This document shows positions 33,001 to 36,000 of a stretch of 64,000 nucleotides of DNA, in pieces. Source of the DNA: Gammaproteobacteria bacterium (GTDB lineage: Bacteria > Pseudomonadota > Gammaproteobacteria > UBA4575); NCBI GenBank assembly GCA_028279275.1, contig JANQOB010000006.1, forward strand, positions 188,799 to 252,798, read 5' to 3'. The position numbers were made by a program. Every line of letters starts with the position of its first letter. Positions within the stretch are counted from its first letter, which is position 1.

Positions 33001-36000
33001 TCTGATATCTTATTTCACTAGACTCAGAGTTAGTGCTTTTTTTAGGATATTCGATAAATTCTGTAAACGACATATTAATCCCCTTATTTTTCTTATTTTA
33101 ATTAATTATAGAATATAAATTCTTTTTGCCAAATAAAATTTAATGCTGTTTGATTTATTAACTAAATCATTTGGTTGCGCCTACTTCCATATACTGAATT
33201 TCTCATACCCATTCGGAAAGCCCATTAATCTTACATCAATATTATATTTTTTAATTAATGAAAATAGATTATTTTTAAAATTATTTTCATCGCAAACAAT
33301 GTTCAATAAATATTGAATCATCACTAATGTATTGTAAATTTTACGAATAACAATTCCATCTCTGTTAAAGTTTTTCGCAAGTGTAGGTGGCTTATTTACA
33401 GGTAACTTTAAAGTTATTGTAAGTTTTCTATTCCACAGCCTGCTGTGATGTGCGCAGGTGTTACGTATATAAGTTAGATGCTGTAAAAATTTATCATAGA
33501 CTAGTTCATCAAGACCATATTGTTTAGAAATTTCAGTTCTGTCTTTGAATAATTTTAAATTTCTATAAATTTTAGAAAGCAACCCTAGTGATATAACTTC
33601 ACATACGACCCAAATTGGAGGTAATTCTGGTTCAGTGTATGTTTTTAAATAGTGTTTAATAAAATTTTCATGTGATCTATTTATTTCTTCCCTTAGCTTC
33701 TCATCTATTTCTGCTAAGCGTTCTTGATTACTATAAATTTTAGGGTCTAAATAAGAATGTGCCCCATATAGATGAGCGATTTGAAATGCCCATTGAGTTC
33801 TAAAAGAAACTTCTAATCGTTCTATTGCATCTAGAATTAATAAGCGAAATTCCCTATCAAATTCATATAGGTTAATCGCCTCTTCTAGAGTGGCGCCTTC
33901 TTTGAATTCATGAGTAGTTTGGTCACTTTCTAGATGTAACCAATATGCTCTTAATCTGTAGTAATTCGAATGGAAAAGATATCTTTTTGCGATATCTTGA
34001 TTTGAGATAGACAATCCACGATCAATTAAAATTTGTATTTGCTCTTCAATTGACCTTGGGGGTTTTGTAAATTTCATTTTTCTCCCCCCAGAAAAAAAGA
34101 AACCCGCCGGTTTGAGGTGCTCATACGAGCATAGCCTTGGCAGGTTTTGTTACTAAGTATTATATGTCCAATTTAACCAAAAACAATGCCATTGGTCATG
34201 ATTTTTAGAAGCAAAATTTACCCATTTCATTCGCCTCAAAATACATATTATTCCTTTATATTCATACAGTTAACTAAATATTAGTGCTATAATTAGTTCT
34301 TTAATTATGTCCCAAGGGAGATCAAATATGAGAAGAATAAAGAGCGTTGTTTTGTGCTTACGCCAGTGTTTACGTACACACTTTCCCCATTTTACGCGCT
34401 TGAAGGAACATGCAAGTAATTGTTTTTCTAAAATTAATGTATTTTCTTCTCTTATAGAAAAACAATTACTTGCATGTTCTTAGTTTAACATAAATTCCTT
34501 TAAAAGTCAAAGACTTACCAACACCTCTCCCAAACAGATAAGAATTAAATGTGCGGCAGATTTAGTACAGCCACCCTCCCAGATACCATCATTAAGGCAT
34601 TAGATTTAATGCCCACAAACTTCCAATTGCGAGATCAGGTTTACCCCACTAACCAAGTCGACGTTGTATTTCGCGGAGAGGATGGAAACGAAATAACGCA
34701 TATGACATGGGGATGGGAGCGTCCTTTTAGTAAACGTCCGCTAATTAATGCGCGTGGTCAGGAAGCTTGGGATAAACGTACGTGGGCTAAAGCTTTAAGA
34801 GAGCGGCGTTGCATAATTCCCGCTAGTGGATTTTTTGAGTGGGACGAGAACCAACCTAAGGGTAGCCGTGATATGTACCGCATTACTCCTACCCATGAAG
34901 ATGGCTTCGCATTAGGTGGTGTGTACGAAATTAACAGTGAATCTGGCGAGATGTTTATGAGTATTTTAACTACTGACCCCAATAAAAAGATGGCGAAGAT
35001 TCACCATCGCATGCCTGTAATATTACAAACAAAAGAATTTAACGATTGGTTTGTTGAGGCCGATCGAGATTATATAGATTATCTTATGGGCCCAGCTAAT
35101 AACGATTGGATAGAATTAAAGATCGAGAATGGGTGAATTAATACGATCTTGGGGTCTGTTTGAATTTTATAGTATGGCTAACTAACTCACCCATTACATT
35201 TATTATACAACTTAATGCCACAAAACGAAAAAGTATTATGGGAAATTTTGAGCTTAATGCACAGTAATACTACAGGGTGGACAAATAAAATTTCTGGTCA
35301 AGAACCCGTCGAAAATAAGATTGAGAATGGGTTTGGTATTCACGCATTGAAAGGCAGGCTAGTTTTAAAATATAGACCAGATGATATTGAAGACACAATT
35401 TATTTTATGTGGCATAGGAATTATTTAGCAAAACATGGACAAGGCATGATTAATCCTGATATTGCTTATAGTTTAAGTGAAAAAGCTCTTGAAGTGATTA
35501 AACAAGGCAAGTTACCCGAAGATGAAGAACATGCGTTTAAAGAATCACTTTGGGATATTAAACCTAAGCTTTGGGGAATGGGCCCAAATTTATCAGAGTG
35601 GTTAAGAAGAGCAAAAAAGATTAAATAAGTATTATGGATGTACAATTATTAATACAAGTGTTCCAAGCTTTCTTAACACCTTTAATAGCAATTCTTGCAG
35701 TTTTTATTGCGTTACAACAATGGAGAACAAACCATTTAAGACTAAAGCTTGAACTGTATGATAGAAGATTAGCAGTTTACGAAGAAGTAAAGAAAATACT
35801 TGGAATAATAATTAGAGAAGCAGATGTTAGTTTTGAAGACCTATTGAAATTCAGAAGTTCTGTAACACAAGCTGACTTTTTGTTTGGTAAAGAGGTCTCT
35901 ATATATTTAGATGAAATTTATAAACGAGGATTAAATCTCCGTAAATGGAAAGAGCAGTACAGAGATTACACACAAGAACAACCAGAAGGCTATGACCATC

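Follow-up and report, generated by a model that had tools for sequence, protein, structure and literature searches.

What does a perfect inverted repeat with 25-bp arms do in the gap between an abortive-infection gene and a SRAP gene that point away from each other? This question is raised by a 64,000-nucleotide stretch of contig JANQOB010000006.1 (assembly GCA_028279275.1, positions 188,799 to 252,798) from a gammaproteobacterium of the UBA4575 lineage, which we refer to, at its full length, as the window. A first-pass annotation of this DNA had placed the repeat upstream of yedK, the SRAP gene, and had offered two readings of it, an operator for a dimeric regulator or a large RNA hairpin, with a small open reading frame (ORF) across it that suggested attenuation-like coupling. 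Tentatively, we prefer to see in it a hairpin of transcribed RNA, placed in the leader of a rightward transcript into the SRAP gene and serving there as a barrier or a processing site; we infer its transcription, the strand concerned and the role of the hairpin from the sequence. The repeat lies in a 471-nt gap between the leftward Abi_2 gene and the rightward SRAP/YedK-like gene, both of them carried by a ~14-kb integrative element:

33181..34077, minus strand: gene for an Abi_2 / AbiD-F abortive-infection protein
34406..34430, no strand assigned: left arm of the perfect 25-bp inverted repeat, reaching 34433 with one mismatch
34431..34454, no strand assigned: spacer or loop of 24 nt, effectively 18 nt if three extra pairs form
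34455..34479, no strand assigned: right arm, the exact reverse complement of the left arm, with an inward extension to 34452
34549..35136, plus strand: SRAP gene (YedK-like, MCGRF N-terminus), first of five co-directional ORFs that reach the tRNA-Arg end of the element

The left arm reads GAACATGCAAGTAATTGTTTTTCTA and is complementary to the right arm at 25 of 25 positions; with one A.A mismatch allowed, the arms grow to 28 nt (34406-34433 and 34452-34479, 96%) and 18 nt remain between them. The perfect repeat with its 24-nt loop is present exactly as first described, as is the divergent arrangement of the two genes, and between the end of the right arm and the SRAP ATG at 34549 there are 69 nt, close to the 70 nt given earlier. 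Only 8 of the 25 pairs are G-C. The repeat is indeed far beyond chance: when the window was shuffled 100 times with its dinucleotide composition preserved, two arm matches never appeared, even with three mismatches allowed, and the hairpin folds at -35.7 kcal/mol compared to -13.0 ± 3.4 in shuffles (z = -6.7). Only two other perfect inverted repeats of at least 18 nt occur in the 64 kb, and the 25-mer itself has no further copy there, within the element or outside it, at three mismatches and low stringency.

The hairpin dominates the predicted fold of either strand, and a large RNA hairpin is the natural reading of the palindrome. In plus-strand RNA, outward G.U and A-U pairs would lengthen the stem to 27 pairs; in minus-strand RNA a C.A mismatch blocks that extension, so that the extra pairs belong to the plus strand only. 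With 25-27 contiguous predicted pairs, the stem of either strand would offer the at least 20 bp of uninterrupted double-stranded RNA expected of an RNase III substrate. On the plus strand it is followed by UUAGUUUAAC (UUAGUUU, five U in the first 7 nt) and on the minus strand by CCUUCAAGCG, which has no U-tract.

We ranked sigma-70 sites across the window with a rough weight matrix and compared the region around the repeat with locus L015, which carries the closest homologue of the Abi_2 protein (P0127, 61% amino acid identity) next to an MmeI-type restriction gene. Four sites matter for the argument:

34482..34510, minus strand: TTGACT-17-TGtTAAACT, top sigma-70 consensus match in the 64-kb window, leftward, predicted start ~34475
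34285..34293, plus strand: extended -10 (TGnTATAAT) TGCTATAAT, best -10 upstream of SRAP, TGTTATAAT in L015, predicted start ~34300
34289..34308, no strand assigned: palindrome ATAATTA-N6-TAATTAT, overlapping this -10 and the +1; by the alignment, L015 keeps the half-sites and changes the spacer
34159..34186, minus strand: TTGTTT-16-TATAAT, proximal Abi_2/abiF promoter-like site, -10 kept in L015

Because consensus promoter matches stand on either side of the repeat, both of its strands are plausibly transcribed. A rightward transcript that starts at ~34300 would therefore contain the hairpin. Between the repeat and the SRAP ATG the best promoter candidate scores 4.8 with a 15-nt spacer and none is comparable to TGCTATAAT, so the SRAP mRNA should carry the hairpin as well. 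The palindrome ATAATTA-N6-TAATTAT, by the retention of its half-sites and the change of its spacer, is a candidate protein operator.

In the reading that we favour, transcription would start at ~34300 from the conserved extended -10 and run into the SRAP operon, and a hairpin of ~27 bp would form ~106 nt into the leader and act as a barrier. This barrier could be a leaky, atypical terminator with the tail UUAGUUU or, its perfect helix being longer than 22 bp, a processing site of the RNase III type; in either form the hairpin would control the amount of transcription, or of stable mRNA, that arrives at SRAP. Besides the dominance of the hairpin in both folds, the outward pairs confined to plus-strand RNA, the lack of a comparable promoter after the repeat, and the length and spacing of the arms, we count for this reading the preservation of TGCTATAAT as TGTTATAAT within a stretch that is 87% identical in L015, the U-rich tail, and the presence across the hairpin of an ORF of a kind that is rare by chance:

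34328..34483, plus strand: 51-codon ORF through both arms, stop at 34481-34483, GGGAG at 34316-34320, 7 nt before the ATG

The first-pass annotation gave this ORF 49 codons; counted from the ATG at 34328 it has 51 and a stop, and an in-frame ATG at 34307 would make it 58. Its GGGAG ribosome-binding site and its passage through both arms are borne out, and its stop falls 2 nt after the stem. A Shine-Dalgarno-like motif followed by ATG occurs at 92 sites on the two strands of the window, and those that open at least 50 codons are mostly genes. Some 66 of the sites, in 128 kb of both strands, open shorter frames (<50 codons) and are presumably spurious; ~2.5% would stay open as long as this one, and by our own estimate ~0.01 chance Shine-Dalgarno ORFs of at least 51 codons are expected in this intergenic region.

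Such an ORF recalls the leader-peptide attenuator of Escherichia coli pyrBI, where translation through the terminator hairpin prevents termination. As in pyrBI, a small ORF with a Shine-Dalgarno motif spans the whole hairpin and stops just after it, with a U-rich stretch and a structural gene downstream. Unlike pyrBI, the stem is 25-27 bp long with a loop of 18-24 nt, the U-tract is weak, regulatory codons and pause logic are missing, the ORF looks non-coding and its frame is unconserved, and nothing is conserved across SRAP genes. The ORF is translatable and overlaps the hairpin, as a leader-peptide attenuator would have it; an antiterminator or a conserved leader ORF was not found, and the fold of the full leader gives no competing structure. 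Of the proposed attenuation-like coupling, the ORF with its Shine-Dalgarno motif across the arms stands, and codon usage, the frame in L015, the lack of an antiterminator and a negative terminator scan weaken the rest. A ribosome translating the 51 codons could melt the stem in the manner of pyrBI, a possible refinement of the favoured reading to which these data lend no support.

The encoded peptide (MRRIKSVVLCLRQCLRTHFPHFTRLKEH...) is basic, Cys-rich and, by inspection, without a membrane-spanning stretch. An exhaustive profile search with it returned repeat-protein noise only, and the exact peptide is nowhere called as a gene in the collection. From its codon usage, the broken frame in L015 and the absence of homologues, the ORF is probably not a conserved protein; a translated yet unconstrained leader is possible.

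To which of the two genes does the repeat belong? The comparison with L015 bears on this directly, for all 298 nt available upstream of the P0127 gene align to the window from 34376 down to 34078. Identity is distributed as follows:

Abi_2 coding region, L015 against the window: 67% nucleotide identity
upstream region overall: 71% nucleotide identity
34317-34288: 87% nucleotide identity
34376-34348: 73% nucleotide identity
34230-34174: 53-57% nucleotide identity
34236..34376, no strand assigned: conserved non-coding block, 67-87% nucleotide identity with L015 (1-145)

Identity in the block at 34236-34376 exceeds that of the Abi_2 coding region (67%), and we take the block to be constrained, because neutral DNA should no longer align at such protein divergence. 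Among Abi_2 homologues of ~50% identity, conservation is limited to the proximal ~120 nt and the distal block is absent. As these alignments have it, the block travels with Abi_2 and not with yedK. The L015 contig ends ~30 nt before the position of the repeat, where the comparison stops. A consensus structure of the block from the two sequences gave nothing informative, and a scan of IMG/VR with a 20-mer from it returned chance matches only, with no Abi_2 nearby.

The proximal part of the same gap holds a recognisable RNA:

34092..34144, minus strand: abiF RNA motif (RF03085) with a U-run, directly upstream of the Abi_2 Shine-Dalgarno motif and ATG

The RF03085 match runs from 34144 to 34102 on the minus strand and scores 26.6 bits, below the gathering score of 37 (E = 0.005, local search). 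The U-run is terminator-like. A stretch of ~60 nt here has matches on unrelated replicons, plasmids of Picosynechococcus and Acetobacter, in each case immediately before Abi-family genes, and it is matched upstream of Abi_2 homologues in other, metagenomic, loci; in a blastn search of 33000-36800 against phage and plasmid records, the match was confined to it. In Clostridioides difficile the abiF motif belongs to RCd22, an RNA that neutralises the AbiF toxin like a type III antitoxin, and the RCd22 promoter lies 168 nt upstream of abiF (PMC12373285). By analogy, the Abi_2 locus fits an RCd22/AbiF RNA-antitoxin system, with one motif here rather than two. The repeat shares with abiF/RCd22 (RF03085; PMC12373285) the intergenic region upstream of Abi_2 and adjoins the block that travels with that gene. 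Unlike them it gives no match to the motif, and it stands ~260 nt farther upstream, beyond the proximal promoter; the abiF motif is therefore rejected as the identity of the repeat, the abiF-like match lying separately at 34102-34144 (minus strand).

On the other side, SRAP homologues of 58-78% identity lie in other contexts and have neither similar upstream DNA nor a long inverted repeat, by which we reject the repeat as a general feature of SRAP genes. The earlier view of it as a yedK element is unsupported, and the assignment to yedK is uncertain because the left flank goes with Abi_2 and SRAP homologues elsewhere do without the repeat.

A link to DNA damage was also implicit in the tests first suggested, and for this the lexA gene of the window is informative (18058-18648, minus strand, followed by a Y-family polymerase gene at 16821-18047, minus strand). 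Directly before it stands a perfect 20-nt inverted repeat (18649-18668 / 18675-18694), each arm of which reads GTTC-N7-GTTC, an alphaproteobacterial-type LexA box. These arms are the only exact GTTC-N7-GTTC matches in the window (exact paired boxes at 18652-18691), and the palindrome is kept in loci L083 and L084 of relatives (~7960-8005), the sole change within an arm (in L083) falling in one N7 spacer. Going by position and conservation, this uncultured gammaproteobacterial lineage probably uses the inverted pair as its LexA operator. L083, from a close relative, has the SOS cassette 158aa-lexA-polymerase-154aa-SRAP (window 16821-19161 against L083 7491-10887), and in L012, from another relative, a polymerase-157aa-SRAP operon is preceded by inverted boxes 10 nt apart (1304-1343). 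Because of this cassette and this boxed operon, we consider SRAP to be normally under the operator in the lineage.

Upstream of the element SRAP (34078-34548), no GTTC-N7-GTTC box was found at up to one mismatch; the lineage LexA operator is absent there, and the DNA-damage link is unsupported. The repeat resembles the lineage operators in being a (near-)perfect palindrome beside an SOS-associated gene, with arms that begin GAAC. Its arm, however, reads GAAC-N7-TAAT, with two mismatches to the box and in the opposite orientation, at a spacing of 44 nt rather than 10 nt; absence of the box, arm sequence, orientation and spacing together rule out a LexA operator of the lineage type. A gamma-type SOS box is likewise rejected, as CTTTATATTCATACAG at 34254-34269 is at chance level. 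So is descent from the 154/157-aa gene that precedes SRAP in chromosomal cassettes, to which the repeat has no similarity.

Some observations on lexA and SRAP stand by themselves. The lexA palindrome also covers the lexA Shine-Dalgarno motif. The 154aa-SRAP pair is missing from the SOS cassette here and in L084 (7746-9824), and the only SRAP of the window is the mobile-element copy, which has no LexA operator. That copy is closest (70-78%) to SRAP genes in chromosome-like, non-phage contexts, on metagenomic contigs and in metagenome-assembled genomes (MAGs).

Several findings weigh against a barrier hairpin in the SRAP leader. The strongest promoter-like site, at 34510->34482, points the opposite way. 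Since the conserved left flank is part of the Abi_2 module, the original target of the rightward promoter may be something other than SRAP. The hairpin is not a standard intrinsic terminator: the AT-rich 25-28-bp stem and the 18-24-nt loop are unlike the clear terminators of the window, which have 13-18-bp stems and 3-nt loops, and a terminator scan calls none in the region. Scored by codon-usage log-odds, for which 30 long ORFs of the window served as the training set, the 51-codon ORF comes to -2.0 compared to 10.7 ± 4.2 in real 51-codon gene segments (215 of 215 higher) and resembles non-coding frames (0.2 ± 5.6 in open off-frame segments). The ATG is present in L015 too, but from about codon 8 onward an indel of 1 nt puts the sequence out of frame, with nucleotide conservation continuing downstream. 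For covariation, no homologue of the repeat was found in the genome, viral and metagenome collections, and L015 stops short of it. Finally, an inverted duplication of very recent date and no function would likewise show a perfect 25/25 match.

The first of these points belongs to a competing explanation that we consider unlikely: a leftward non-coding RNA, or a long Abi_2 leader, with the repeat as its 5'-terminal stem-loop, transcribed from the 34510->34482 promoter with its start at ~34475, where a flush helix of ~22-25 bp would block 5'-end-dependent decay, make an antisense partner of the rightward leader, or both. This promoter-like site is the best of the window (score 13.9, with only three sites at 12 or more), shuffles give sites as good at ~0.5 per 64-kb window, and we estimate the chance of one in this intergenic region at ~0.004; a separate consensus promoter scan reports it as its only site in this region. 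The -10 ends 3 nt from the right arm, which puts the predicted start on the first bases of the repeat, and the same scoring finds a plausible promoter for a 528-aa gene of the element (33132->33105). Stabilising 5'-terminal stem-loops are established, for example in the ompA 5' untranslated region, and the predicted leftward start at the first stem bases, with its flush 5' helix, resembles that type; unlike it, the helix here is much longer, and transcript and function are hypothetical. Several points tell against such an RNA. The Abi_2/abiF unit is compact elsewhere, with promoter and motif within ~120-170 nt of the ATG (PMC12373285), and Abi_2 has its own conserved proximal -10. The minus strand has no convincing terminator: a second stem with a U-tail, examined as the terminator of a leftward small RNA, is not significant (z = -0.4), and no U-tract comes right after the repeat. 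The C.A mismatch stops outward extension on this strand, and 25 perfect pairs far exceed what a 5' cap hairpin needs.

We also doubt, to a similar degree, that the repeat is functionless, either a recent inverted duplication made by template switching or snap-back or a recombination scar at the junction of the Abi_2 and SRAP modules, in which case its youth alone would explain its perfection. No collection holds a homologue of this singleton, which lies no more than 30 nt from where demonstrable homology with the Abi_2 module ends, and cargo regions of mobile elements are mosaics. What ends that homology, however, is the end of a contig rather than a demonstrated junction; the promoter-like sites on both sides have a suggestive geometry, with the ORF stop 2 nt after the stem; and no duplication donor is identifiable, the arms being sole copies.

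More improbable is a site at the DNA level, an operator (the first-pass idea) or a cruciform, bound by a regulator that represses the leftward promoter, roadblocks the rightward transcript, or both. The position would suit an operator, since the right arm begins 3 nt downstream of the strongest promoter-like -10 and covers +1 to +25, and perfect symmetry is compatible with a symmetric binder. Nonetheless, 25-bp arms whose centres lie 49 bp apart fit a dimeric regulator awkwardly, being unlike known dimer operators, and no additional arm-like sites exist in the element or the window; arm length and spacing point to nucleic-acid pairing instead. Nor was a DNA-binding domain found above the Pfam cut-off in the six hypothetical proteins of the element that we scanned (253, 528, 137, 155 and 115 aa and the 58-aa version of the leader ORF), among which a sub-threshold pRN-type match in the 155-aa protein is the only such hint. 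The site is not the lineage LexA operator either, and CTTTATATTCATACAG is at the level of chance.

A bolder proposal, to which we give little credence, joins the two sides of the gap. The hairpin and the block at 34236-34376, which brings its own conserved TGnTATAAT promoter and the small operator-like palindrome, would form an undescribed second RNA gene in a subgroup of AbiD/F (Abi_2) systems, a divergent small RNA of ~180 nt that ends in the hairpin and sets or triggers toxin expression together with the abiF motif, and read-through from it would have been co-opted for an SRAP operon that had lost its LexA control.

Least probable is that the repeat is a miniature inverted-repeat transposable element (MITE) or a collapsed insertion-sequence remnant, a 74-bp unit with 25-28-bp terminal inverted repeats: long terminal repeats around a short core are the MITE layout and the location in mobile-element cargo would agree, but a target-site duplication is lacking (no direct repeat is common to the flanks ...TTGAAG and TTAGTT...), the 64 kb, the part of this genome that was searched, hold a single copy and 185,579 species genomes, IMG/VR and the JGI metagenomes none beyond chance matches and unrelated palindromes, and 74 bp is less than typical MITEs. 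Neisseria Correia elements, small bacterial MITEs of 100-155 bp that may carry promoter or RNase III functions, are likewise intergenic and have terminal inverted repeats of ~25 bp; unlike them, the repeat is single-copy, spans 74 bp, lacks TA or any other target-site duplication and has no sequence relatives.

The barrier hairpin in the SRAP leader, which we prefer to these alternatives, has a likeness in the RNase III processing hairpins of phage leaders and intercistronic regions, such as the lambda N leader and sib and the T7 R sites. Here too a helix of more than 20 bp is predicted in the untranslated leader of a mobile-element operon, with the length of a substrate on either strand. The known sites of this type are imperfect and their internal loops direct single cuts; the helix of the repeat is perfect, and its cleavage is hypothetical. 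Overall, the repeat would be one more example, as yet uncharacterised, of leader or boundary hairpins, a well-known sort of element.

Should the hairpin gate the SRAP operon, it would show how a DNA-damage gene was rewired that in related bacteria sits in a LexA-controlled lexA-polymerase-SRAP cassette and here on a satellite-like element under different control. If it belongs to the Abi_2 side, it would be an extra component of a recently described RNA-regulated AbiF toxin-antitoxin system. As an orphan structural element in one genome it carries limited weight, and the by-products of the analysis, namely the lineage LexA operator, the displaced SRAP, the Abi_2-linked block and the double occupancy of a tRNA gene, may be worth more.

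Searches for relatives of the repeat itself covered three collections. Scans with a 20-mer of the arm gave no match in IMG/VR and none in the JGI metagenomes; in the 185,579 GTDB species genomes they gave two single-arm chance matches that lack a partner arm, one in a MAG of Bacteroidota and one in a MAG of Mycoplasmoidaceae. The pattern of the outer ends, GAACATGCAAG-N40-64-CTTGCATGTTC, returned five unrelated palindromes, mostly GC-rich. One of these, at L078 63-148, is a palindrome that far exceeds the match and lies close to the end of its contig; we regard it as unrelated and as a probable assembly artefact.

Further identities were considered and set aside. Against Rfam the repeat gives only sub-threshold matches to eukaryotic miRNA families, which are spurious. 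A type I toxin-antitoxin system is rejected as the peptide has no hydrophobic membrane-spanning stretch, though an antisense promoter-like site is present. An integron attC site would require R''(RYYYAAC)...R'(GTTRRRY) with imperfect pairing and extrahelical bases, and the repeat has the ends AAGGAAC... and ...GTTCTTA and a perfect stem. An invertible switch and a protelomerase site were rejected by inspection, on geometry or sequence.

The element that carries the repeat is bounded by two tRNA-Arg repeats: the tRNA-Arg(TCG) gene lies at 37057-37133 (minus strand), and 47 bp of its 3' part are repeated at 23047-23093 (95.7%). The two copies delimit an integrative, satellite-like element of ~14 kb with the following genes:

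23272-24582: integrase
25090-27114: D5-like primase/helicase
28750-30634: small and large terminase homologues

Its cargo block comprises a 253-aa protein, a 528-aa protein, AbiD/Abi_2, SRAP and four small ORFs; because of the tRNA attachment (att) boundaries and this gene content, we place the repeat in the defence or cargo part of the element. An independent assembly of run SRR20820731 produced a 14,017-bp contig that is identical over the compared region and, by coordinate arithmetic, extends exactly from att repeat to att repeat. The G+C content is ~36%. All window proteins tested are singletons at 90% identity, and relatives of LexA at 70-94% identity belong to uncultured Gammaproteobacteria. 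When relatives of the element were sought in IMG/VR through its terminase, 528-aa protein, Abi_2 and SRAP, only terminases of ~25% identity were found.

Two further features of the element merit mention. The 528-aa cargo gene (31487-33073) adjoins AbiD and gave no match in Pfam or PHROG and no meaningful one in PADLOC, so that it may have a defence function as yet uncharacterised. Just upstream of it stands the second-best sigma-70-like site of the window (TTGGCA-16-TATAAT, 33132->33105, minus strand). The replication and terminase modules, which are divergent, leave 1.1 kb between them, and an imperfect inverted repeat of 39 nt in this interval (28348-28539; 77%, 114 nt apart) is a candidate regulatory or origin region.

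Beyond the tRNA-Arg gene lies a second element of ~16 kb, bounded by an exact 40-bp copy (53394-53433) of the 5' half of that gene (37095-37134). Its integrase (37170-38201) abuts the tRNA-Arg 5' end, so that the tRNA gene is flanked by two integrative elements. Unusually, it is the 5' half of the gene that this second element apparently replaces, and a 19-bp tRNA-Arg remnant at 22876-22894 suggests an older event.

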